64,000 bases of DNA from Desulfovibrionaceae bacterium (GCA_963674955.2 CAXXKR010000004.1:1017804-1081803); one strand, 5' to 3'; positions 10,209-54,760 are shown, numbered from the stretch's first letter. Notes: generated by a model not told the origin, from the letters alone. Made by a program: numbers and translations.

Positions 10209-10284
10209 GCGGGTGTAGCTCAGTTGGTAGAGTACAAGCTTCCCAAGCTTGGTGTCGCGGGTTCGACCCCCGTCACCCGCTCCA
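10209..10284 (+). tRNA. tRNA-Gly (anticodon CCC), CCA encoded
   Basis: A 76-nt cloverleaf folded by eye. Acceptor stem GCGGGTG/CACCCGC, D arm GCTC-AGTTGGTA-GAGT, anticodon stem CAAGC/GCTTG with loop TTCCCAA, T arm GCGGG-TTCGACC-CCCGT, and a terminal TCCA. Confidence 0.9.
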
Positions 10285-18382: not shown

Positions 18383-20638
18383 ATGCTAATACCTTTTGAC
18401 AAAACCAGCATCGAGACACGAGTCGGCGATCTGGACATCTCACTTGAAACCGGCAAGCTGGCCAATCAGGCCGGCGGCGCCATCCGTGTCCAGGTCGGCG
18501 GGACCGTCATTCTGGTCACCGCCACCACCCAGACGCTTGAATTCGACAGGGGCTTTTTCCCCCTGACCTGCAACTATCAGGAAATGGCCTATGCCGCGGG
18601 ACGCATCCCCGGCGGCTACTTCCGCCGCGAGGTGGGCCGTCCCTCCGAGCGCGAGACCCTGGTCTCCCGCCTCATCGACCGCCCCATCCGCCCCCTGTTC
18701 GCCAAAGGCTTCAAGGACGAAGTCCAGGTCATCGCCACGGTGCTTTCCGCAGGAAAGAACACCAACCCCGACGTTCTGGCCATCACCGGAGCCTCGGCAG
18801 CCCTGCACATCTCAGAAATCCCCTTCCTCGGCCCCATCGCCGGCGCCAGGGTCGGATACGTGGACGGAAAATTCGTTCTCTATCCCACATATAAGGGAAT
18901 CAACGAGCAAAGCGCCCTGAACCTGATTTTTGCGGCCTCCCGCGACGCCGTGGTCATGGTCGAAGGCGCGGCCGAATTCCTTTCCGAAGACATAATCGCC
19001 GAAGCCCTTGAATGGGGCCACCAACAGATCATGCCCCTTCTGGACATTCAGGACGAGCTCAGGGAAAAAATCGGCAAACCCAAGATCGCGGTCGAACCTC
19101 CGGTACGGGACGAAGCCCTGGCTTCCTACATCGGAGAAATCATCAGCGACGACCTGAAAAAGGCCCTGACCACACCGGAGAAAATGGCCCGCAAGGAAGC
19201 CAAGGCCAAGGCCAAGGCCAAGACCGTCGAAGCGGTTGCCGAAAAATTCACTGAGAACGAAGAGGCCCAGAAGCAGGTTTCCGAAGTTTTTGGCGATCTC
19301 GAAAAGAAGATCGTCCGCGCCAGGATCAAGGAAGAAGGCGTCAGAATCGACGGCCGCGACCTGACCACCGTCAGGCCCCTGTCCATCGAAGTCGGCCTGC
19401 TTCCCTCGACCCACGGCTCATCCCTGTTCAGGCGCGGCGAGACATCGGCCTTGGCCATCGCCACCTTGGGCAGCTCCCGCGACGAACAGCGCATGGAAAC
19501 CCTGACCGGCGAAATCAGCAAGCGCTTCATGCTCCATTACAACTTCCCGCCCTACTGCGTCGGCGAGGCCAGAATGCTTCGCGGCCCCAGCAGGCGCGAG
19601 GTCGGACACGGCGCGCTGGCCGAAAGAGCCCTCACACCCGTGCTTCCCGATACCGACGACTTCCCCTTCACCATCCGCGTGGTCTCCGAAATCATGGAAT
19701 CCAACGGTTCTTCCAGCATGGCCTCGGTCTGCGGAACAACCCTGGCCCTGATGGACGCGGGCGTGCCCATCAAGGAACCCATCGCGGGCATCGCAATGGG
19801 CCTGGCCAAGGAAGGCGAAGACTTCTTCATCCTCACCGACATCCTCGGCGACGAGGACGCGCTGGGCGACATGGACTTCAAGGTCGCCGGTTCCAAGGAC
19901 GGCATCACCGCCATCCAGATGGACATAAAGATCAGCGGCATCCCCTATGACGTGCTGCGCCGCGCCCTGCATCAGGCCAAGGACGCCCGCCTGCACATCC
20001 TCGGACACATGAACGAGATCATCGCCGCGCCCAGGGCCGAGTTGTCCGACCTGGCGCCGCAAATGACCGTTCTGCAAATCAATCCGGAAAAAATCCGCAG
20101 CGTCATCGGACCCGGCGGCAAGAACATCAAAGCCATCACCGCCGAGACCCAGGCCGACATCGACATCGAAGATTCCGGAAAGATTTCCATCTTCGCCCCG
20201 ACCCTGGAGTCCATGGAAAAGGCCAAGGAAATGGTCCTCTACTACGACCAGAGCCCGGAACCGGGCAAGAACTACGTGGGCACGGTGAAAAGGATTCTCG
20301 AATCCGGAGCCCTCGTGGAGATACTTCCCGGCCTCGAAGGCATGCTGCACGTGTCCCAACTTGACGTGGACCGCATCGAGAACGTCACCGACCTGCTCCA
20401 GCTGGGCCAGGAAGTGACGGTCAAATGCATTGAACTCGGTCCCAACGACCGCATCCGTCTCTCCCGAAAGGCATGGCTCATGGAGCAGGCCGGGCAGGAG
20501 GTCAACCTTGAGGACTTCAAGCGTCCCGCCCCCAGGCGCGACGGAGGAGGCGGACGCGACGGCAGGCGCGACAGTCGCGGCGGTGGACGAGACAGCCGTG
20601 GCGGTGGACGAGACAGCCGTGGCGGCGGGCGCAGATAG
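18383..20638 (+). CDS. pnp: Polyribonucleotide nucleotidyltransferase (PNPase) with C-terminal RGG-repeat tail
   Basis: It has two RNase PH domains (FFRREVGRPSERETLVSRLIDRPIRPLF, GHGALAERAL), plus KH and S1 domains (GTVKRILESGALVEILPGLEGMLHVSQL). A tail RRDGGGGRDGRRDSRGGGRDSRGGGRDSRGGGRR follows. Confidence 0.95.
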   Translation: MLIPFDKTSIETRVGDLDISLETGKLANQAGGAIRVQVGGTVILVTATTQTLEFDRGFFPLTCNYQEMAYAAGRIPGGYFRREVGRPSERETLVSRLIDRPIRPLFAKGFKDEVQVIATVLSAGKNTNPDVLAITGASAALHISEIPFLGPIAGARVGYVDGKFVLYPTYKGINEQSALNLIFAASRDAVVMVEGAAEFLSEDIIAEALEWGHQQIMPLLDIQDELREKIGKPKIAVEPPVRDEALASYIGEIISDDLKKALTTPEKMARKEAKAKAKAKTVEAVAEKFTENEEAQKQVSEVFGDLEKKIVRARIKEEGVRIDGRDLTTVRPLSIEVGLLPSTHGSSLFRRGETSALAIATLGSSRDEQRMETLTGEISKRFMLHYNFPPYCVGEARMLRGPSRREVGHGALAERALTPVLPDTDDFPFTIRVVSEIMESNGSSSMASVCGTTLALMDAGVPIKEPIAGIAMGLAKEGEDFFILTDILGDEDALGDMDFKVAGSKDGITAIQMDIKISGIPYDVLRRALHQAKDARLHILGHMNEIIAAPRAELSDLAPQMTVLQINPEKIRSVIGPGGKNIKAITAETQADIDIEDSGKISIFAPTLESMEKAKEMVLYYDQSPEPGKNYVGTVKRILESGALVEILPGLEGMLHVSQLDVDRIENVTDLLQLGQEVTVKCIELGPNDRIRLSRKAWLMEQAGQEVNLEDFKRPAPRRDGGGGRDGRRDSRGGGRDSRGGGRDSRGGGRR
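20570..20632 (+). repeat. 3 x 21-bp tandem repeat encoding DSRGGGR units at the pnp 3' end
   Basis: The units are GACAGTCGCGGCGGTGGACGA / GACAGCCGTGGCGGTGGACGA / GACAGCCGTGGCGGCGGGCGC. Confidence 0.85.
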
Positions 20639-20663
20639 GCTGCAAAAAAGATAAACAACAAAA

Positions 20664-20693
20664 ACGGCGGTCCATTGTGGCCGCCGTTTTTTT
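20664..20693 (+). terminator. Intrinsic terminator after pnp
   Basis: ACGGCGG ... CCGCCGT stem followed by TTTTTTTAT. Confidence 0.75.
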
Positions 20694-20717
20694 ATGGAAT
20701 TCAAAGATTGCATCACT

Positions 20718-20746
20718 TTGACAAGTGGATATGCCTCGTCTAGATT
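20718..20746 (+). promoter_or_regulatory. Sigma-70-type promoter for the small glutaredoxin-like gene
   Basis: TTGACA (20718-20723), a 17-nt spacer, then TAGATT (20741-20746). A GGGGAGG ribosome-binding site lies at 20761-20767 and the ATG at 20775. Confidence 0.6.
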
Positions 20747-20774
20747 ATTTTTAATGATAACGGGGAGGCTGAAA

Positions 20775-20990
20775 ATGGATGAACGAATTGTGATCTACGG
20801 GAAAAGCACTTGACCTCACACCACACGGGCCCGTGAGGCCCTGAAGGACGCTGTCTTCCATGACGTGCTTCTTGATCCCACCAAGCTGGAAGAGATGCTC
20901 AAACTGACCAACGGCGCGCGCAAGGTGCCCGTGCTGGTGGAAAATGGACAGGTCAGCATCGGATTCAACAGGGGATCGTGAGGGGTATGA
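20775..20990 (+). CDS. Glutaredoxin-like (NrdH/YruB-type) small protein with two in-frame TGA codons, a putative double selenocysteine protein
   Basis: Manual translation gives MDERIVIYGKSTUPHTTRAREALKDAVFHDVLLDPTKLEEMLKLTNGARKVPVLVENGQVSIGFNRGSUGV. U marks the TGAs at 20811-20813 and 20979-20981. The first U replaces the first Cys of the Grx CPxC motif, and KVPVLVENGQVSIGF is the Grx fold signature. It has its own promoter and RBS, and a hairpin follows each TGA. It is not in the ORF track because of the TGAs. Confidence 0.7.
20827..20841 (+). promoter_or_regulatory. Candidate SECIS hairpin for the first TGA
   Basis: GGGCC-CGTGA-GGCCC. The stem starts 16 nt and the loop 21 nt after the T of TGA 20811. 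An alternative pairing, CCTCAC (20814-20819) with GTGAGG (20833-20838), is also possible. Confidence 0.5.
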
Positions 20991-20993
20991 TCA

Positions 20994-21012
20994 TTCCGGC
21001 GGTCTGCCGGAA
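20994..21012 (+). promoter_or_regulatory. Candidate SECIS hairpin for the second TGA (lies in the 3' UTR)
   Basis: TTCCGGC-GGTCT-GCCGGAA, a 7-bp stem. The stem starts 15 nt and the loop 22 nt after the T of TGA 20979. The GGUCU loop resembles the apical loop of the E. coli fdhF SECIS as I remember it. An A-run follows, not a T-run, so it is not a canonical terminator. Confidence 0.55.
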
Positions 21013-21034: not shown

Positions 21035-21844
21035 TCAGCTCACCAAAATCCCGGCGTAGCCCACCACCTTGCTGAAATCCCGGTTCATCTCTCCGGAGGT
21101 GGCGTAGGCGACCAGTTCAGCCCTTTGAGCGCCAAGACCAAGCGCTGCGGACAACCCCAGAGTCATGGGAAGCACGCCGCACATGCTGATGCCCTTTCCC
21201 CGCACCACACTGTACAAGTCCAGCGGCTTCAGTCCGCAGGCGGCCTTGATTGCCAGCACATCCTGTTCCCTGGCCCGGTCGTGGGAAACGTAATGGCTCA
21301 TGTCCGAGCTGACCACTATGGACACGGAACGGTCTTTCCTGTTCAGCACTGTCGCCAAGGCCCCGCCAACCGCAAGCAATGTCTCCGGGTTGGATTCCGC
21401 CACGCAAACCGGCACTATTCGTGTGTCCGGATTGAGCCGGGCCAGAAAAGGCAGGACCACTTCCAGGGAGTGCTCGTTCAAATGCGCGTCCCTGTTGGCC
21501 GTGAACCTCGGTTCGGCCTCCATGATCTCAAGGGCCAGCTCGCTGTCCACTTCCAGGCCGCCGCCGGGAAAAAGCCACTGGCCATCGGGCCAAAGGGCCA
21601 AACGCGCCCCCAGGCCCGTGTGGTTGGGTCCGAGCAGAACCACCGTTGAACGCAGTCTGGCCCGGCCCAGAGTCTTGCCGCAGACCCCACCCGAAAACAC
21701 GTAACCGGCATGGGGGACCATGGCCAGGATGGTTGGATCAATCTCGCGATCTCCGGCCTGGGCCAGATATCCGTCCACTTCCGACACCAGGGCTTCTGCC
21801 GTCCCGGGATAAAACTGTCCGCTGACCACCGGCTGCCTGTCCAT
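21035..21844 (-). CDS. Memo-like protein (AmmeMemoRadiSam system protein B family)
   Basis: MDRQPVVSGQFYPG...ILAMVPHAGYVFSGGVCGKTL...LGPNHTG...VVSSDMSHY are the conserved MEMO1/AmmeMemoRadiSam B motifs. Confidence 0.8.
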   Translation of the reverse strand: MDRQPVVSGQFYPGTAEALVSEVDGYLAQAGDREIDPTILAMVPHAGYVFSGGVCGKTLGRARLRSTVVLLGPNHTGLGARLALWPDGQWLFPGGGLEVDSELALEIMEAEPRFTANRDAHLNEHSLEVVLPFLARLNPDTRIVPVCVAESNPETLLAVGGALATVLNRKDRSVSIVVSSDMSHYVSHDRAREQDVLAIKAACGLKPLDLYSVVRGKGISMCGVLPMTLGLSAALGLGAQRAELVAYATSGEMNRDFSKVVGYAGILVS

Positions 21845-30468: not shown

Positions 30469-30849
30469 ATGATTCCCCAGGATTTACTTTACGACAAGAC
30501 CCATGAATGGGCAAAGATCGAAGGCGAGATCGTGACCATTGGCATCACCCACTTTGCCCAGGAACAGCTCGGCGATCTCACCTACGTCGAGCTGCCCGAC
30601 GTCGGCGACACTTTCAGCCAGGGCAATGAAATCGGGTCCGTGGAATCCGTCAAGGCAGCCAGCGAAATCTACACTCCCGTGGCCGGAGAGGTCGTGGAAG
30701 TCAACGAGGCTCTGGAAGACGCGCCCGAAAAGGTCAACGAAGAGCCGTACGGCGCTGGCTGGCTGTTGAAATTCAAGGTCTCGCAGGCCCCTGAGGGGCT
30801 GCTCACGGCCGACGAGTACCAGATATTCATCGAATCGGAAGCACACTAA
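30469..30849 (+). CDS. gcvH: Glycine cleavage system H protein
   Basis: [36 protein letters not shown] and the lipoyl-lysine context [22 protein letters not shown] match GcvH. The start is at ATG 30469, after AGGAGGA. Confidence 0.9.
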
Positions 30850-30870
30850 CTCCCAAGGAGTATCCCGGCA

Positions 30871-32205
30871 ATGCCCTTTGTCCCACATACCCCGGACGAG
30901 ATTCGGGAAATGCTCGAAGTCATAGGCGTGGACTCGGTGGCGGACCTCTTTGCCGAAATCGGCCCGGAGATGCAGCCCAAGAGCTTTGACCTGGCCAACG
31001 GCAAAAGCGAAATGGAAGTGCTGGAGCACATGGAACGCCTGGCCGACAGGAACCTGAGCGATCAGTTCAGCTTTCTCGGAGCGGGATTCTACGACCACCA
31101 CATCCCGGCGGCCGTCGGAGCGCTTACCTCGCGCAGTGAATTCTACACGGCCTACACCCCGTATCAGCCCGAGGCGGCCCAAGGCACCCTGCAGGCCATA
31201 TTCGAATACCAGACCGCCATGACCCGAATCATGGGCATGGAATGCGCCAACGCTTCGGTATATGACGGCGGCACCGCCCTGTACGAAGCGGCCATGATGG
31301 CCGTGCGCAAGACCAAGCGCAACAGACTTGTGGTCAGCGAAGGGCTGAACCCCATCTACAGGGTCATGCTCGACTCCTACACCACCAACCTGAACCTTGA
31401 ACTGATCACCGTGCCCCACGTCAAGGGGCAGACCGACGCGGCCGGGCTGATGAAGGCCCTGGACGACAACACGGCGGCAGTGCTGGTCCAGAACCCCAAT
31501 TTCTTCGGCAGCGTCAATGACTTCAGCGACCTCTTCGCCGCCGCCAAGGAAAAGAAGGCCGTATCCATCATTTCCGCCTACCCTGTGTTGCAGTCGGTGC
31601 TCAAGACCCCCGGCGAAATGCAGGCCGACATCGCAGTGGCCGAAGGCCAAAGCCTTGGACTGCCCCTTTCATTCGGCGGCCCCTATCTCGGCGTCATGAC
31701 CTGCACCAAGGCCATGATCCGCCAGATGCCAGGACGCATAGCCGGACGCACCCAGGACGATCAGGGGCGCACCGGATATGTGCTGACTCTGCAAGCCCGT
31801 GAGCAGCACATCCGCCGCCAAAGGGCCACGTCCAACATCTGCTCCAATCAGGCCCTGTGCGCCCTGCGCGCCCTGATTCACGTCTGCCTGCTGGGACAGG
31901 AAGGACTCAGGCGGACCGCCCAGACAAGCATCGAACGCGCCCATTACGCGGCCAAGCGCCTGAGCTCCATCCCCGGAGTGGAGCTGCTCACCGACGGCCC
32001 CTTCGGCAACGAATTCGCCGTCACCCTGCCCGTAAATGCCTTCGAGGTCATCGACGCGCTCACCGGGCGCGGCATCGTGCCGGGCTTTCCCCTGGGACGC
32101 TATTACAAGGGTCTGGAGAACGGGCTGCTCGTGGCCTGCACCGAAAAGAACACAAAGGAACAAATCGGCATATTCGCCGAGATGCTGCAAGGTATTCTGT
32201 CATGA
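30871..32205 (+). CDS. gcvPA: Glycine dehydrogenase (decarboxylating) subunit 1
   Basis: FLGAGFYDHHIPAAV, SEFYTAYTPYQPEAAQGTLQAIFEYQT and NASVYDGGTA are the GcvPA signature. Confidence 0.9.
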   Translation: MPFVPHTPDEIREMLEVIGVDSVADLFAEIGPEMQPKSFDLANGKSEMEVLEHMERLADRNLSDQFSFLGAGFYDHHIPAAVGALTSRSEFYTAYTPYQPEAAQGTLQAIFEYQTAMTRIMGMECANASVYDGGTALYEAAMMAVRKTKRNRLVVSEGLNPIYRVMLDSYTTNLNLELITVPHVKGQTDAAGLMKALDDNTAAVLVQNPNFFGSVNDFSDLFAAAKEKKAVSIISAYPVLQSVLKTPGEMQADIAVAEGQSLGLPLSFGGPYLGVMTCTKAMIRQMPGRIAGRTQDDQGRTGYVLTLQAREQHIRRQRATSNICSNQALCALRALIHVCLLGQEGLRRTAQTSIERAHYAAKRLSSIPGVELLTDGPFGNEFAVTLPVNAFEVIDALTGRGIVPGFPLGRYYKGLENGLLVACTEKNTKEQIGIFAEMLQGILS

Positions 32206-43369: not shown

Positions 43370-45014
43370 AAAATTCCTGACCCTCTATCCCTTGGGCGGG
43401 CTCGGCGAAATCGGGCGCAACTGCATGGTTCTTAAGACAAGGGAAACAATGGCTGTGGTGGACTGCGGACTCATGTTCCCCGACGACTACCTCTACGAGT
43501 GGACATCGCCATCCCCCGCTTCGACATGATCATCAAAAACAAAGACATCCTCAAAGGCATCGTCCTGACCCACGGCCATGAGGACCACATCGGAGCCCTG
43601 CCCTGGCTGCTGCCATATGTGGACGCCCCGGTCTACGGTTCGCGGTTTACCCTCGGACTGGTGGAAAACAAGCTTCGTGAGCACGATCTCCTGAACTATG
43701 TCGATTTGAGGGAAGTCAAACCCAATGAACGAGTCCAGCTGGGCGATCTGGCCTTCAACTTCTTTCCGGTCTGCCATTCCGTGATCAAGGGCTACGGGCT
43801 GGGCATCGAGACCCCTGTGGGCCGCATGGTGCACACCGGGGATTTCAAGATCGACAGAAACCCACTGGACGGCCACGCCACAGACCTCAAGGCCTTCAAG
43901 AAATTTTCGGAACCGGGCGTCAAGCTGCTCATGTCCGATTCGACCAATGTGGAGCGTGAAGGCTTTGCCCTGACGGAGAGGGAAATCAAGTCCAGTCTGC
44001 GGGAAATATTCTGCCAGCCCCACGGACGCATCCTGGTCACCCTCTTTTCCAGCCACATCCAGCGCATGCAGGAAATATTCGATCTGGCGGAAGCAGCCAA
44101 CAGAAAGGTCGGGGTCAGCGGCAAGAGCCTGCTCCGAAACATCGAACTGGCCAGGGAACTCGGCTACCTCAAGGTTCCCGGCAACACACTCATAAACGTT
44201 GACGAGATCAACAACTACGCCGACGACCAACTCGTCCTGCTCCTGACCGGATCCCAGGGCGAACCACTGTCCGCCCTGACGCGCATCTCCCAGGACGAAC
44301 ACAGGCAGGTCTCCATCAAGCCGGGCGATCTGGTGCTCTTGTCCTCGCGCTTCATCCCCGGAAACGTCCGGGCCATCACGAAACTCATCGACCGGCTCTA
44401 CAAGCTGGGCGCGGAGGTGTTTTACGAAAGGGTCCAGGCCATCCACGCTTCGGGCCACGCCCACCGCGAAGAACTGAGAATCATGCTGGACACGGTCAAA
44501 CCGACCTATTTCATCCCGGTTCATGGCGAATACCGCCACCTTGTCAAACACAAGCGGCTGGCGGAGGAAAGCGGAATCGCCGAGGAAAGGGCCATCCTCC
44601 TCGAAGACGGAATGCCCGTGACCTTTTTAGAACAGGGAGTGAGATTCGAGGAAGCCGTCTCGGCGGACATGATCCTGGTGGACGGAAAAGGCGTGGGCGA
44701 CGTAGGCCAGGCGGTTCTCAAGGAACGCCAGCTTCTGGCCGGGGAAGGCATGGTCATCGTCCTGCTGGTCGTCGACAAGGCCACGGGCGAAATAACCCTG
44801 GGACCGGATATCGTCTCCAAGGGCTTCGTCTTTGAACAGGATTATTCGCACCTGCTTGGAAGACGCCAAATGCATAGTGTTGGACGTATTCGAGAACATC
44901 GCGCCCGGAGAGACGAAAAAGCTCAAGGAAAAGATACGCTCGGCCCTGCGCCGCTTTTTCCGCAAGGTTCTGGACCGCGATCCCGTGGTGGTTCCGCTGG
45001 TCATTACAATGTAG
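43356..45014 (+). pseudogene. rnj: Ribonuclease J, reading frame interrupted by two 1-nt frameshifts
   Basis: The gene reads in three pieces:
- Piece 1 (from 43356): MSEAEKFLTLYPLGGLGEIGRNCMVLKTRETMAVVDCGLMFPDDYLY, then a stop at 43527-43529.
- Piece 2 (from 43499, shifted frame): VDIAIPRFDMII...GIVLTHGHEDHIGALPWLL ... GFVFEQDYSHLL.
- Piece 3 (from about 44859, back in the first frame): EDAKCIVLDVFENIAPGETKK...VVVPLVITM, stop at 45014.
Together they form a full-length RNase J. Confidence 0.75.
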
Positions 45015-45164
45015 CGGTTCTCGATTTTTTTCCTTGCCTTTTTTATGTTATAACCGTAGAAGTTTCTGTTTCAAAATTCACACATCTCGGATGGACCCTG
45101 GGTAACCCCAGTGAATCGGGGCGGTTCATAATTACCGGGATGGAGGAAAAACCCAGGAGGAATA

Positions 45165-46112
45165 ATGGCTTACATCAGCATGAAACAAATGCTGGAGACC
45201 GGTGTTCATTTCGGTCACCAGACCCGCCGCTGGAATCCCAAGATGCGCCCATACATATTCGGGGCCCGCAACGGAATCCACATCATGGACCTGCAGCAAA
45301 CCGTCAAGCTCTTTCAGACCGCCCACGACTACGTTGTCGACGCGGTGGCCAAGGGCGGAAAGGTCCTGTTCATCGGCACCAAGCGCCAGGCCCAGGAGGC
45401 CTTCAAGACCGAGGCGGCCCGAAGCGGGATGTACTATGTCACACACCGCTGGATGGGCGGCACACTGACCAACTTCCAGACCATCAAGCACAGCATCGAC
45501 CGCCTCAAGACCCTTGAAGAGATGTTCGAGGACGGTTCCATCAGCAAATTTCCCAAAAAAGAAATCGTCTGCATGAATCGCGAGGTCAAGAAGCTCAATA
45601 ACGCCCTAGGCGGAATCAAGGACATGACCGAACCGCCCAAGGTCGCCTTCATGGTCGACCCCAAGCGCGAACACATCGCGGTCATGGAATGCCGCAAACT
45701 GGGCATCCCCATTGTCGCGGTCGTCGACTCCAACTGCGATCCGGACGTGATCGACTACATCATACCGGGCAACGACGACGCCATCAGGGCCATCAAGCTC
45801 TTTGCAACCCACATGGCCGATGCCTGCATCGAAGGCGCGGCCCTTTATGAAGAATACAAGGCCGGTGAGGCCAAGAAGGCTGCCGAAGAAAGCAAGAAGG
45901 CCGCTGAAGAGGCCAAGAAAGCCGAGGCCGAGGCCAAGAAGTCGGAAAAGCCCAAGAAGGCCGCTCCCCCAAAGCCTGGTCCCAAGAAGGCCGCCCCCAA
46001 AAAGGAAGCCAAGGCTGAAGACAAGCCCAAGGCCAAAGAAGAAAAGAAAGCTGAAGCCGAGCCCAAGGCCGAAGCCAAGGAAACCGAGACAAAGACCCAG
46101 GAGGACGCTTAA
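45165..46112 (+). CDS. rpsB: 30S ribosomal protein S2 with K/A/E-rich C-terminal extension
   Basis: [39 protein letters not shown] is canonical S2. About 85 aa of AKKAAEE/KPK low-complexity tail follow. Confidence 0.95.
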
Positions 46113-48945: not shown

Positions 48946-49743
48946 ATGGAAACCCACCAGAAAAGAGTCATCACCGCCGCCGCCGTTCTCACGCTGCCAA
49001 TAATTGCCATAATAATGCAGGGCTACGTATTGCTGGTCGTTCTGGCCATTTTTTGCGGAGCCGGACTATGGGAATATTACGGACTCTTCTGGTCCGGAGA
49101 CAAATTCAGGCGGACAAAAATCGGAGGCCTTATCTGCGCCGCCCTGCTCCTGGCGGCCCTCAGCCAGACCGACGGCAGGCTGGCCCTGGCCGCGCTTCTG
49201 GCGCTGTTCTGGGCCGTTAACATCTACTACCTGAAAAAATACGCCTCCAACCCCGAAGAAACGTCCTATTCGGACTGCCTGATACTTTTCAGCGGCCTCA
49301 TGTACATCCCCTTTTCCCTACACTTCACCCTGCATTTCCAGAGAGCCGAGATCATCCTGGTCCTGCTTGCCGCCTCGGTTTCCGACACTGCCGCATACTA
49401 TGCCGGTTCCTGGCTGGGAAAGAAAAAAGTCTGGCCGGTTATCAGCCCCAACAAGACAATCGCCGGAAGCGTGGGCGGATTCATGGCCTGCGTTCTCTGC
49501 ACGCTCATCCTGGGCCTGAGCCTGGGCGACTCTCCCTGGTGGTCCTGGATCATCCTGGGCGCCGTGCTCAATATGGCCGCCCAGCTCGGTGATTTCTTCG
49601 AATCCGCGTTGAAACGCAAGCTTTCGGTCAAGGACACGGGCTCCATCCTGCCCGGCCACGGCGGAGTCCTGGACCGAATGGACAGCCTGCTGTTCGTGGT
49701 TCCCGTCTTCGGCCTGGCCAAAATGTTCCACCCCTTTTTCTAA
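48946..49743 (+). CDS. cdsA: Phosphatidate cytidylyltransferase
   Basis: A multi-pass membrane protein carrying the CdsA signature SALKRKLSVKDTGSILPGHGGVLDRMDS. Confidence 0.85.
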   Translation: METHQKRVITAAAVLTLPIIAIIMQGYVLLVVLAIFCGAGLWEYYGLFWSGDKFRRTKIGGLICAALLLAALSQTDGRLALAALLALFWAVNIYYLKKYASNPEETSYSDCLILFSGLMYIPFSLHFTLHFQRAEIILVLLAASVSDTAAYYAGSWLGKKKVWPVISPNKTIAGSVGGFMACVLCTLILGLSLGDSPWWSWIILGAVLNMAAQLGDFFESALKRKLSVKDTGSILPGHGGVLDRMDSLLFVVPVFGLAKMFHPFF

Positions 49744-49764
49744 CCCCAATCCAGGACAGCATCC

Positions 49765-50961
49765 GTGAAAACATACATTTCGCCCTGGCCGGAAACAGCA
49801 GCCCTGCCCGATTTCCCGAGAAGCGTCTCCATCCTCGGCTCCACAGGTTCCATTGGAACCAGCGCACTGAACGTCATCGACCAGCATCCCGGAATGTTCA
49901 AGGTGGCGGCCCTGGCCGGCGGTCGCAACGCGGCCCGCCTGGCGCAGCAGGCCGACAAATACAAGCCCGGATATCTTGCGCTGCTCACGGATAAAGCCGC
50001 TGCGGAACTTAAAGCTGCGCTGCCCTCCGGATATTCGCCTAAAATACTGGTGGGCCCGGAAGCCTATGTGGCCCTTGCCGTTTTGCCGGAAGCGGACCTG
50101 ATCCTTTCAAGCATTGTCGGTGCGGCGGGTTTCGAGCCAACCCTGGCCGCCGCCAAGGCCGGCAAGGTCATCGCCCTGGCCAACAAGGAAAGCCTCGTAC
50201 TCGGCGGCAACCTGATCCGCAAGGCCTGCCACGAGTCCGGCGCGGTGATCCTTCCCGTGGATTCCGAACACAACGCCCTTTTCCAGGGATTGGCCGGACA
50301 TGGCGACGAGGTCAAACAATTGATCCTGACCGCCTCCGGCGGACCGTTCAGGGGCAGGGACCGCTCATTTCTGGAATCCGTGACCCTGAAACAGGCCCTG
50401 GATCATCCCAACTGGTCCATGGGACCGAAAATAACCATCGACTCCTCCACCCTGATGAACAAGGGGCTGGAGGTCATCGAAGCCTTTCACCTCTATGGCC
50501 TCGGCGTGGACAAGATCGACGTGGTCGTCCACCCCCAGAGCATAGTGCACTCCCTTGTGGAATACGTGGACGGCTCACAGCTTGGGCATCTGGGCGTGCC
50601 GAACATGCAGATTCCGATCGCCTACTGCATGTGCTTTCCCAGGCGCGTGCCCCTGGAACTGAAACCCCTCAAGCTGTCCGAAGTGGGCACGCTGACCTTT
50701 GAAAAACCGGACCTGGACGCGTTTCCCTGCCTTAGGCTGGCGATGGAGGCATACGCCGCCGGGCCGAGCCACCCCATAGTCCTGAACGCGGTCAACGAAA
50801 TCGCCGTGGAACTTTTTCTGAATGAAAAAATCAAGTATCTTGACATACCGGGCATGATCGAAAAGGCCCTGGAGAATCACTCGCCCATGACCGTGGACAC
50901 CCTGGAATCCATTTTGGAGCTGGACGTGGCGGCCAGGGCGGAGGCCCGCGGACGGTCCTGA
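49765..50961 (+). CDS. dxr: 1-deoxy-D-xylulose 5-phosphate reductoisomerase
   Basis: ILGSTGSIGTSALNVI, LANKESLV, LPVDSEHNALFQ, LTASGGPFR and NWSMGPKITIDSSTLMNKGLEVIEA match Dxr. The start is GTG. Confidence 0.95.
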   Translation: MKTYISPWPETAALPDFPRSVSILGSTGSIGTSALNVIDQHPGMFKVAALAGGRNAARLAQQADKYKPGYLALLTDKAAAELKAALPSGYSPKILVGPEAYVALAVLPEADLILSSIVGAAGFEPTLAAAKAGKVIALANKESLVLGGNLIRKACHESGAVILPVDSEHNALFQGLAGHGDEVKQLILTASGGPFRGRDRSFLESVTLKQALDHPNWSMGPKITIDSSTLMNKGLEVIEAFHLYGLGVDKIDVVVHPQSIVHSLVEYVDGSQLGHLGVPNMQIPIAYCMCFPRRVPLELKPLKLSEVGTLTFEKPDLDAFPCLRLAMEAYAAGPSHPIVLNAVNEIAVELFLNEKIKYLDIPGMIEKALENHSPMTVDTLESILELDVAARAEARGRS

Positions 50962-52915: not shown

Positions 52916-54274
52916 CTATGGCGTGAGCCGCTCCACGGTATGCTCCAGCTGTCTGCCCAGCGGGGTCTGCATGGTTATCTCGCGCTCGACGTTGGTAATG
53001 CCCTTGAGCACGGTCGAATGCTTGCGTCCCAAGGCTTCGCCAATGTCTTTAAGGGAAAGTTCGGTATGTTTGCGGGCAAGGAAAAAAGCGGTGTTGCGGG
53101 CCAGGACTATCTGTTTCTTGCGGCTCTTGGATTTGAGCTGTTTTCTGGTCAGGTCGTAGCCCTTGCAGATGAATTCGATGATGTGTTCAAGGTCGGGGCT
53201 GGAATGGGCCAGAGCATAGTTGTCCAGCACTTCCCAAGCCAATTCCATGGATACCTTGTGGTTCAGAAGTTTGGCCTTGAGCACAAGATTGTTCAGACAG
53301 CTTTCCAACTGGCGGATGTCGGTGGTGATGCGCTCGGCCAAAAGGCTGGAGACGCTGTCCGGCACTTCCACGTTCAGGGCCTTTGCCTTGCGTATCAGAA
53401 TGCGCTTTCTCGTCTCATAATCGGGCCTGTCGATGACCGCCAGGAACCCGGAGGTGATGCGGGAAATGAGCTGGGAATCCAGTTTGGACAAATCCTTGGG
53501 CAGAAAGGAACTGGTCAGGACGACCTTGCAACCTCTGGCCTGCAGGGCATTGAGCGTGCCCAGAAGCTCATCCTGCATCTTTTCCTTGCCCTGAAAAAAA
53601 TGCACGTCCTCCAGAAGAAGCACATCCACGGCATCCCTGAACTCGGCCTTGAAACGGGGCACTTCCCTGGACTTGATGGCCAGGATCAGCCTGGTGGCGA
53701 ATTCCTCGGCCGTGAGGCAGGCGATGGAAAGACGGTCCTTGTTGCTGGCGGCCGTAAGCATGTGGCCGATGGATTGCAAAAGATGCGTCTTGCCCAGTCC
53801 GGGGCCGGAACTGAGAAACAGGCTGTCTGAAGGCAGGGAATCGCGACAAAGTCCCTGAGAGGCGGCGTATGCCAACTCGTTGCAGGGACCGACCACGAAA
53901 TCGTTGAAGGTGAAACGCCATTTGGCGCAACGCCTTCCATTGGGAACATGGACAATGGGCAGCCCAAGGGGGCGGGAAGATTCTTCGCCGGAAGGAATTC
54001 CCTTGCCAGCGACCTCAAGGGATTCTTCCTTTTCGATTTCGGAAGCGACGATCTCGATCTTGGGCTGTACTCCCAGGACCTGGGCGGCGGCCTCTTCTAT
54101 GGCCCCGGCCAAACGGTCCCTGACCCAGGAGGCCACGAATTCGTTGGGCGCATGCAGGGTCACCGACCGGCCATTGACCACGGCGCGCAATGGCTTGATC
54201 CAGACCTTGAATAGCCCGGGGTTTAGGCTCTTTTCGAGCGCCAGGAGTATGTCGTTCCAGCTGTCTTTAAGCAT
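52916..54274 (-). CDS. dnaA: Chromosomal replication initiator protein DnaA
   Basis: The four DnaA domains are visible:
- Domain I: WNDILLALEKSLNPGLFKVWIKPL.
- AAA+ module: Walker A LFLSSGPGLGKTHLLQSIGH, Walker B VLLLEDVHFF.
- Domain IV: IVLARNTAFFLARKHTELSLKDIGEALGRKHSTVLKGI.
The start is set at ATG 54274; the track ORF extends to 54376. Confidence 0.9.
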   Translation of the reverse strand: MLKDSWNDILLALEKSLNPGLFKVWIKPLRAVVNGRSVTLHAPNEFVASWVRDRLAGAIEEAAAQVLGVQPKIEIVASEIEKEESLEVAGKGIPSGEESSRPLGLPIVHVPNGRRCAKWRFTFNDFVVGPCNELAYAASQGLCRDSLPSDSLFLSSGPGLGKTHLLQSIGHMLTAASNKDRLSIACLTAEEFATRLILAIKSREVPRFKAEFRDAVDVLLLEDVHFFQGKEKMQDELLGTLNALQARGCKVVLTSSFLPKDLSKLDSQLISRITSGFLAVIDRPDYETRKRILIRKAKALNVEVPDSVSSLLAERITTDIRQLESCLNNLVLKAKLLNHKVSMELAWEVLDNYALAHSSPDLEHIIEFICKGYDLTRKQLKSKSRKKQIVLARNTAFFLARKHTELSLKDIGEALGRKHSTVLKGITNVEREITMQTPLGRQLEHTVERLTP

Positions 54275-54350
54275 GAGCAATGTGATAGACTGACCGCCAG
54301 CAAATGGGCAACTGTGGTATTCACCACGGACAGCTAGTCCGACAAAAACA

Positions 54351-54359
54351 TTATCTACA
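54351..54359 (+). promoter_or_regulatory. DnaA-box-like 9-mer upstream of dnaA
   Basis: TTATCTACA, one mismatch to TTATCCACA. It lies 77 nt upstream of the chosen dnaA start. Confidence 0.45.
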
Positions 54360-54376
54360 AGGCAACACCCTTTCAT

Positions 54377-54760
54377 TAAACATCTTTTCCAAAACCCTCA
54401 TTCAGTAAGACATTCTCATCATCGGTTAGCGGCTTAGAGCATTCAAGGCTTGGCAGTTGAGAACGCAAAATCTTTAAACAGTAGTTAAATTATTTTTCAA
54501 CACCCACTCAGTCCCGTTTTTAGTAAAAATGACCGATAATTTTATTTATCTCATTTGCACAAAAAATTTCTAGACAATTTTTTGGGAAATCGCCCTAATT
54601 TTGCAGACACCATAAACATAACATGCTGAAATAAAATTAATAACAGAAAACGAAGAAATCAATTTAAAAAAAAGTTTTACACAGCCAAATCAGTGCCAAG
54701 CCCGGAAGCCCTTTACTGACAGGCACTGGTTGCCTCTTGGATTAGAAACATCTTTTATTT
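54377..54760. other. AT-rich non-coding region upstream of dnaA (dnaA control region, possibly oriC-like)
   Basis: This is by eye the most AT-rich stretch of the window (e.g. AAATAAAATTAATAACAGAAAACGAAGAAATCAATTTAAAAAAAAG). Weak DnaA-box-like words are TTTTACACA (54675-54683) and ATTTGCACA (54553-54561). There is no credible ORF. Confidence 0.4.

Follow-up and report, generated by a model that had tools for sequence, protein, structure and literature searches.

The question raised by this locus is whether the gap between pnp and a Memo-like gene, in a 64,000-nucleotide stretch of the genome of a Desulfovibrionaceae bacterium (GCA_963674955.2 CAXXKR010000004.1:1017804-1081803; the whole stretch is called the window hereafter), is as empty as its reading frames suggest, or whether it holds a small gene in which in-frame TGA codons are read as selenocysteine (Sec). 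The open reading frame (ORF) listing contains zero ORFs of at least 60 aa between the two genes, and its track looks empty at the locus because just two fragments of 39 and 38 aa, flanking the first TGA, are listed there. An earlier note, made from the DNA alone, had claimed that the gap contains a complete small transcription unit missed by the six-frame track. This was confirmed, and the promoter-like site, the GGGGAGG motif, the ATG at 20775 and the 71-aa peptide with two in-frame TGAs that it described agree base for base with our reading. The predicted coding sequence extends from 20775 to 20990 on the + strand, terminal TGA stop included, and is assigned to a 71-aa glutaredoxin (Grx)-like selenoprotein of UXX-star family 1 on the basis of the NCBIfam model NF041114, the Pfam Glutaredoxin model and the orthologues. 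Translated conventionally, it reads MDERIVIYGKST, stop, PHTTRAREALKDAVFHDVLLDPTKLEEMLKLTNGARKVPVLVENGQVSIGFNRGS, stop, GV, stop; with Sec at the two internal TGAs the product becomes MDERIVIYGKST-U-PHT...NRGS-U-GV. The first TGA (codon 13, 20811-20813, + strand) would encode an active-site Sec in U-P-H-T, at a position where the orthologue alignment shows either Cys or TGA. The second (codon 69, 20979-20981, + strand) would encode a C-terminal Sec in S-U-G-V-stop. The C-terminal codons at 20979-20990 are TGA-GGG-GTA-TGA (Sec-x-x-stop), and both the translation and the comparison of 28 loci place the true stop at the last of these, a TGA at 20988-20990 (+ strand).

Profile searches were run on the 71-aa product with U written as C. 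The best description of the protein was given by NF041114, "UXX-star selenoprotein family 1", with 98.6 bits against an equivalog cutoff of 72 (E = 1.7e-28), residues 5-71 being aligned on profile positions 1-70 of 70. The parent subfamily NF041212 was also reached (68.8 bits, cutoff 66), as was Pfam Glutaredoxin PF00462 (36.9 bits, gathering threshold 22.9), and NF041114 was the best model for all 25 related sequences. A 2026 review lists UXX-star family 1 as Grx-like, with the motif UxxT and two Sec (PMC13188914); U-P-H-T at codons 13-16 carries this motif, and two Sec per protein are found here as well. The accession WP_258313609.1 appears in the passage of the same review on UXX-star, and the review credits Haft & Tolstoy 2025 for UXX-star family 2 and the HUGP/GUXX-star fusion (PMC13188914). 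The phrase 'distant Grx' is absent from the main text of Zhang & Gladyshev 2008, which the review cites for family 1. It is very probable that the locus is a member of this already named and catalogued family, its architecture being without novelty. The family name for Grx-like proteins ending in Sec-x-x-stop that the earlier note mentioned does exist, and a Sec at the first active-site position combined with a Sec three codons from the end is supported by both the family match and the orthologues. Two other statements of that note have to be given up: membership in the NrdH/YruB type (TIGR02194 NrdH, 12.0 bits against 85.75; TIGR02196 YruB, 30.8 bits against 88.55), and the view of the Sec/Sec pairing as unusual, since it is a catalogued trait of UXX-star family 1.

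The fold points in the same direction. A profile built from 25 family sequences matches only Grx-type proteins in the PDB, and codon 13 falls on the first Cys of CPHC/S in solved Grx structures. The product contains neither a dithiol C-x-x-C nor a monothiol CGFS site, the second Cys being missing from U-P-H-T. The fold was modelled on a family member, P0045, which has W at both Sec positions and was used as a stand-in for the window protein. The AlphaFold2 model of P0045 has a predicted local distance difference test (pLDDT) score of 86.6 and the order b1-a1-b2-a2-b3-b4, with the usual C-terminal helix missing. Its best Foldseek matches are glutaredoxins and NrdH, at template modelling (TM) scores of 0.77-0.81.

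For the comparative analysis, 28 related loci were pooled from a protein search, a genome scan, a metagenome scan and the contigs of exhaustive HMMER matches. A word-indexed protein search gave one homologue, P0001, which led to locus L001; the genome scan gave 5 loci, among which L002-L005 were kept and L006 was spurious. The metagenome scan was the source of L007-L022, with L023 and L024 being unrelated glutaredoxins, and L025-L036 are contigs that encode matches of the exhaustive HMMER search. By its patterns, the metagenome scan was limited to sequences with Cys in place of one Sec, and all the family members that it returned have Cys at codon 13 and a C-terminal TGA. The public protein sets carry relatives that are truncated, clipped at the N-terminus past codon 13, or written with Trp at both Sec positions. 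Thus P0005, P0006, P0011, P0012, P0019, P0022, P0029, P0032, P0044 and P0045 have Trp at the TGA positions, as under a code in which TGA is Trp, and some of these entries read past the real TGA stop while others are clipped after codon 13. Translation of their contigs with table 11 shows that these W residues are TGA codons. The expectation of the earlier note that gene callers would easily miss such a gene is in agreement with these entries, because calling with TGA as a stop either loses the gene or leaves fragments.

Codon 69 is TGA in all 28 loci. The codon that follows is Gly in 21 of them, with GGG, GGC, GGA and GGT all used, and otherwise His, Thr, Ala, Arg or Lys; the next is Val in 26 loci, with all four codons used, and Ile in the 2 others. 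The stop that comes after these two codons is TGA in 15 loci, TAA in 5 and TAG in 8. An invariant TGA, two codons under selection at the amino-acid level and a free choice of terminator form the signature of translation through TGA69. An alternative is that the second TGA is a plain stop, the protein ending at ...NRGS with at most one Sec, and that the hairpin behind it is a transcript-end or stability element of two convergent genes. Gene callers do end the Cys13 homologues at TGA69, P0001 and many of the search matches among them. A plain stop does not, however, fit a codon that is TGA in 28 of 28 loci while TGA, TAA and TAG all occur at the stop behind it, nor exactly two following codons, always of the Gly/His type and then Val/Ile, whose synonymous variation indicates selection at the protein level, nor a homologue (L034) with TGT (Cys) at codon 69. 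On the position of the hairpin, which also bears on this alternative, we return below. The Cys-containing relatives that the earlier note had proposed to look for at positions 13 and 69 were found in 16 loci for position 13; for position 69 the 28 loci all have TGA, and Cys is seen in the homologue L034. In this metagenomic sequence (L034:244-546), TGA stands at the active-site codon, TGT stands at the C-terminal Sec position, and about 30 codons more (GGS-C-SNQSGQ…) replace x-x-stop; this could reflect a Cys version of the tail, but also a frameshift or an artefact of assembly.

At the active site, codon 13 is TGA in 12 distinct loci (the window and 11 others) and TGC or TGT, giving CPxT, in 16, and the protein alignment is unbroken across it. 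This ratio of 16 Cys to 12 Sec is uninformative on natural frequencies, because the metagenome patterns demanded Cys at one Sec position. Termination of the orthologues at the first TGA, a possibility raised in the earlier note, was not seen: position 13 is Cys or TGA, and homology continues past it. The gene order rpsO-pnp-small gene, facing Memo and a tetratricopeptide repeat (TPR) protein gene, is also found in L001, L002 (a Pseudodesulfovibrio metagenome-assembled genome), L004 (Desulfovibrio caledoniensis), L007 and L008, and the pnp products of the syntenic loci are 75-79% identical at the protein level, so that gene order and pnp by themselves point to a member of the Desulfovibrionaceae as the likeliest source of the window. 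These five syntenic orthologues have TGC at codon 13 (L001:3031, L002:3025, L004:3025 and L007:3025, against 20811 in the window) together with a C-terminal Sec, and the window alone has TGA13 in this group. The window also has an A-R-E-A codon block, otherwise seen in distant Sec13 forms; its syntenic relatives have A-L-x-A-H. One could accordingly regard the first TGA as a nonsense mutation or a sequencing error (TGC to TGA), the locus then being a pseudogene or encoding a 12-residue peptide, since the syntenic orthologues all have TGC and one base change suffices. The frame downstream of codon 13 is, however, intact in the window, with 54-70% identity to the orthologues, TGA occurs at the same codon in eleven other independent loci, and the A-R-E-A block forms a hairpin at +16 as in the distant TGA forms, while the Cys13 syntenic relatives are unpaired there. 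A simple nonsense mutation is argued against because Sec13 comes with this A-R-E-A hairpin block, and we consider this explanation extremely improbable. As far as can be read from the compared loci, Sec13 in the window marks a Cys/Sec switch specific to its lineage, accompanied by a corresponding change of structure in the coding region, and both in-frame UGAs are under selection as sense codons.

The structure in question is a Sec insertion sequence (SECIS)-like hairpin, GGGCC-CGUGA-GGCCC, at 20827-20841 (+ strand), inside the coding sequence over the R-A-R-E-A codons, with its stem starting at +16 and its loop at +21. This internal element was tested on an ungapped alignment in codon register, the register being held by the coding frame. 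In the 12 TGA13 sequences, the 5-bp helix formed by +16..+20 and +26..+30 is paired in 85% of the cells, and sliding the 3' arm by 1-3 columns, as a control on the same sequences, lowers the pairing to 18-62%. Compensatory changes are found in three of the five pairs (C-G to U-A at the inner pair; G-C, A-U and G-U at the fourth), all of them at third-codon positions. For the 16 Cys13 orthologues, pairing over these columns is 40%, which is the background level and no better than the slid controls. The helix is encoded by an Ala-Arg-x-Ala block (GCC CGU GAG GCC in the window), and the Cys forms have A-R-D-x-Y or A-L-x-A-H. Since pairing and compensatory changes occur in the TGA forms only, the internal structure travels with the UGA.

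Behind the second UGA, a further SECIS-like hairpin, UUCCGGC-GGUCU-GCCGGAA, is found at 20994-21012 (+ strand), with the stem at +15 and the loop at +22 from this UGA. It lies wholly in the 3' untranslated region (UTR), after the real stop, because just two codons follow UGA69. RNA folding reproduced the spacings given in the earlier note for both hairpins (+16/+21 and +15/+22), and both have the geometry of bacterial SECIS elements, namely an apical loop about 16-37 nt from the UGA and a G in the first loop positions (CGUGA at +21, GGUCU at +22). The loci were screened by one rule: the stem had to run for 5 bp or more without a break, the loop had to measure 3-8 nt, begin 16-37 nt from the U of UGA and carry a G among its first two positions, and the energy could not be above -5 kcal/mol. 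Of 26 distinct loci, 23 have such a hairpin, whereas dinucleotide shuffles predict 6.8 (combined p ~1e-17, a value that is optimistic because some of the loci are related). The loops start at +19 to +25; the outlier L035, with its loop at +31 and -4.7 kcal/mol, falls outside the rule. The stems vary widely in sequence, their position is kept across unrelated genomic contexts, and the mean z-score of their minimum free energy (MFE) is -1.0 for 20 loci. RNAalifold returned no structure for these 3'-UTR hairpins on a MAFFT alignment, which was out of register, and a hairpin-anchored alignment was avoided for this element, since counting pairs in it would be circular. Covariance, on which the earlier note had made both hairpins depend, thus backs the first one; the second is backed by positional conservation, but formal covariation was not obtained for it.

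The 3'-UTR hairpin is also the place to decide on the plain stop. Its location between two convergent genes is where a terminator would be expected, which favors a role at the transcript end. It is, however, followed by A9 on the + strand and by a T run on neither strand, and on the - strand the U run comes ahead of it; it is therefore, as the earlier note had already remarked, no canonical terminator, and this holds for both convergent genes. Furthermore, a fixed distance between hairpin and UGA is kept in unrelated contexts. Together with the codon data given above, this makes a plain stop at codon 69 very improbable, and decoding of both UGAs as Sec is the reading that we retain.

Several results weigh against this reading, or against parts of it, and have to be considered with it. 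By energy, the hairpins of the locus taken alone are insignificant: the internal one has a folding z-score of +0.37, and the 3'-UTR one gives z-scores from -1.6 to -3.2 depending on the segment folded. The energy of the best hairpin also fails to split the TGA13 from the Cys13 forms (Mann-Whitney p = 0.13), the genomes of the Cys forms being richer in GC. It is in the comparative analysis only, on the sequences at hand, that the hairpins exceed chance. Rfam gave nothing relevant at gathering or at permissive thresholds, and it may hold no applicable bacterial SECIS model; the weak permissive matches at 20640-20700 are the pnp terminator. No selA, selB or selD was found among the 20 ORFs scanned in the window, and no tRNA-Sec in the window. 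By way of background, Sec is common in Desulfovibrio relatives, formate dehydrogenase and [NiFeSe] hydrogenase being examples. Sec13 is a lineage-specific state, because the closest syntenic orthologues are all Cys13. In the P0045 model, the last three residues have a pLDDT of 48, so that a contact between Sec69 and Sec13 is only putative. Finally, no experiments on any family member were found in the literature searched.

The signals around the coding sequence indicate how the gene could be expressed. The pnp gene (18383-20638, + strand; TIGR03591, 976 bits) is followed by an intrinsic terminator at 20660-20691 (+ strand), in which a 13-bp hairpin is flanked by an A-tract on its 5' side and by U7 on its 3' side. 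Its MFE is -20.1 kcal/mol (z -3.88), none of 200 shuffles folds equally well, and it divides pnp from the small selenoprotein gene. A predicted sigma-70-like promoter, TTGACA-N17-TAGATT, lies at 20718-20746 (+ strand); it is a consensus match only, with 10 of 12 consensus positions matched and 1 site found against 0.3 expected in shuffles. A Shine-Dalgarno motif, GGGGAGG, is read from the sequence at 20762-20768 (+ strand), 6 nt 5' of the ATG. From the terminator, the promoter-like site and the ribosome-binding site, the small gene is predicted to be its own transcription unit. An in-frame ATG at 20694 was dismissed as the start: it precedes the promoter-like site and comes directly after the hairpin of the pnp terminator, and the N-termini of the orthologues fit the ATG at 20775. 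On the other side, the Memo-like gene (AmmeMemoRadiSam-B/Memo; 21035-21844, - strand; TIGR04336, 279.8 bits) is convergent. Its last codon is TGA and its profile is covered in full (270 of 270 positions), which shows TGA working as an ordinary stop at other places in the window. The two convergent genes have a 44-bp spacer in common, with a single hairpin, and neither of them has a canonical intrinsic terminator. The neighbours are infB, an nrnA-like gene, truB, rpsO and pnp, followed by the small gene, on the + strand, and Memo and a 1081-aa TPR protein on the - strand.

Concerning function, we propose a mechanism that starts with an independently transcribed gene encoding a 71-residue cytoplasmic selenoprotein of glutaredoxin fold. 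Sec13 would replace the nucleophilic Cys of a C-P-x-T 'monothiol-type' site, and Sec69 would be carried on a short tail after beta4, in place of helix alpha3. The two hairpins would recruit SelB-GTP-Sec-tRNA(Sec), so that both UGAs would be decoded as Sec. In the protein, Sec13 would attack the substrate and Sec69, on its flexible tail, would resolve the intermediate, giving a Se-Se (selenenyl-selenide) bond in the window protein and a selenenyl-sulfide in the Cys13 orthologues; the oxidised pair could then be re-reduced by a thiol or a thioredoxin-type system. Because the second active-site Cys is Thr, Sec69 is most probably the resolving partner of Sec13. As a whole, a redox relay from Sec13 to Sec69 is the likeliest role, yet a tentative proposal to which we give somewhat less than even weight. 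A more specific form of it, in which Sec13 and Sec69 would be a natural intramolecular diselenide couple and the pnp-linked group would capture a recent Cys-to-Sec conversion that needed a SECIS to evolve inside the coding sequence (A-L-x-A-H to A-R-E-A), appears doubtful.

As the main rival, the two selenolates could instead bind a soft metal or metalloid (Hg, As, Cu, Se) with high affinity, as paired ligands, the protein being a chaperone or a detoxification carrier. The review suggests metals, or substrates not yet known, as possible ligands of the Sec residues in UXX-star proteins (PMC13188914), related NCBIfam models include fusions such as HUGP/GUXX-star, and a flexible tail, with its pLDDT of 48, fits chelation as well as redox chemistry. 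On the other hand, no metal-resistance or transport genes adjoin the gene here or at the syntenic loci, where pnp, Memo and TPR are the neighbours, and the fold and the conserved cis-Pro 'VPV' are features of thiol-disulfide oxidoreductases; neither of these arguments is decisive. The gene neighbourhood itself favors neither a redox relay nor a metal carrier, and we consider a metal carrier unlikely, keeping the redox relay as the working proposal.

Some other features of the window were recorded. The end of the pnp ORF, at 20520-20635, encodes an Arg/Gly-rich tail (…RRDGGGGRDGRRDSRGGGRDSRGGGRDSRGGGRR) on a direct DNA repeat, ggtggacgagacagccgtggcg, present in two copies, and this tail lies beyond the PNPase profile matches, which stop near residue 697 of 751. 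A scan of the 64 kb for further genes with in-frame TGA gave 191 candidates, the sequence being GC-rich, and is uninformative on the use of Sec. At 31380-31457 (- strand), ARAGORN calls a tRNA-Val (GAC) inside a mechanical ORF of 388 aa (30484-31650, - strand), and the Rfam gathering scan gave only a tRNA-Gly at 10209-10281; one of these calls is probably wrong. The dnaA gene is found at 52916-54376 (- strand; TIGR00362, 346.6 bits), the 380 bp upstream of it (54376-54755) are poor in ORFs, and the window is therefore probably near the chromosomal replication origin. The profile alignment of an RNase J-family ORF at 43499-45517 (+ strand) begins at profile position 43/44; compared with the family, this ORF may be short of about 43 N-terminal residues, unless its start lies 5' of an in-frame stop. 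Lastly, an apparent ORF-free gap at 49743-50575 holds an ORF of 398 aa.

Recognising the gene corrects the annotation of the locus and would add one selenoprotein to the selenoproteome of the organism. What is added locally is a Cys/Sec switch within a syntenic group, a UGA-linked hairpin in the coding region with compensatory changes, and a consistent 3'-UTR hairpin after the stop. The family is catalogued yet uncharacterised, and these data could guide a first biochemical study; they leave the knowledge of this kind of system as it was. Should the diselenide couple be true, it would give a matched natural pair (Se-Se versus S-Se) in which the benefit of the second selenium could be measured.

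Compared with known systems, the gene resembles most UXX-star family 1 itself (NF041114; 'Distant Grx-like protein 1' in the selenoproteome literature), with the same UxxT, Sec-x-x-stop, two Sec, about 70 residues and Grx-like fold; its local traits are the conserved pnp/Memo position in Desulfovibrionaceae and a Sec13 where the recovered syntenic relatives carry Cys. With the classical Grx and seleno-Grx (C/U-P-x-C, as in E. coli Grx3 and Clostridium oremlandii cGrx1) it has in common the fold, the nucleophile at the N-terminus of helix 1 after G-K-x-x, the cis-Pro (V-P-V) and the G-F/G-G turn after beta4. It differs from them in having Thr for the second Cys and in the replacement of alpha3 by a tail of 5-8 residues with the second Sec. 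In the monothiol Grx5, a Cys by the GG motif or turn resolves the active-site Cys, which offers an analogy to the role proposed for Sec69. NrdH and YruB are alike in their small size (70-80 aa) and Grx fold (TM ~0.77), but the scores are far below their cutoffs, and there is neither a CxxC nor an nrd operon context here. For the RNA elements, the E. coli fdhF SECIS (TGACACGGCCCATCGGTTGCAGGTCTGCACC, read from MG1655) is the nearest comparison, in line with the resemblance stated in the earlier note: its loop, GGUC, starts at +21, against +21 and +22 here, a G (GU) stands in the loop, and the 7-mer GGUCUGC is common to it and to the 3'-UTR hairpin. The stems here are shorter (5 and 7 bp) and lack an evident bulged U, and the likeness is one of sequence and geometry. 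The tail of the animal thioredoxin reductase (Gly-Cys-Sec-Gly-stop) offers an analogy without tail homology. That GCUG tail can swing to a buried redox centre and carry redox equivalents out; here, there is no adjacent Cys, and the putative partner of the C-terminal Sec would be found in the same small Grx domain rather than in a flavoprotein.

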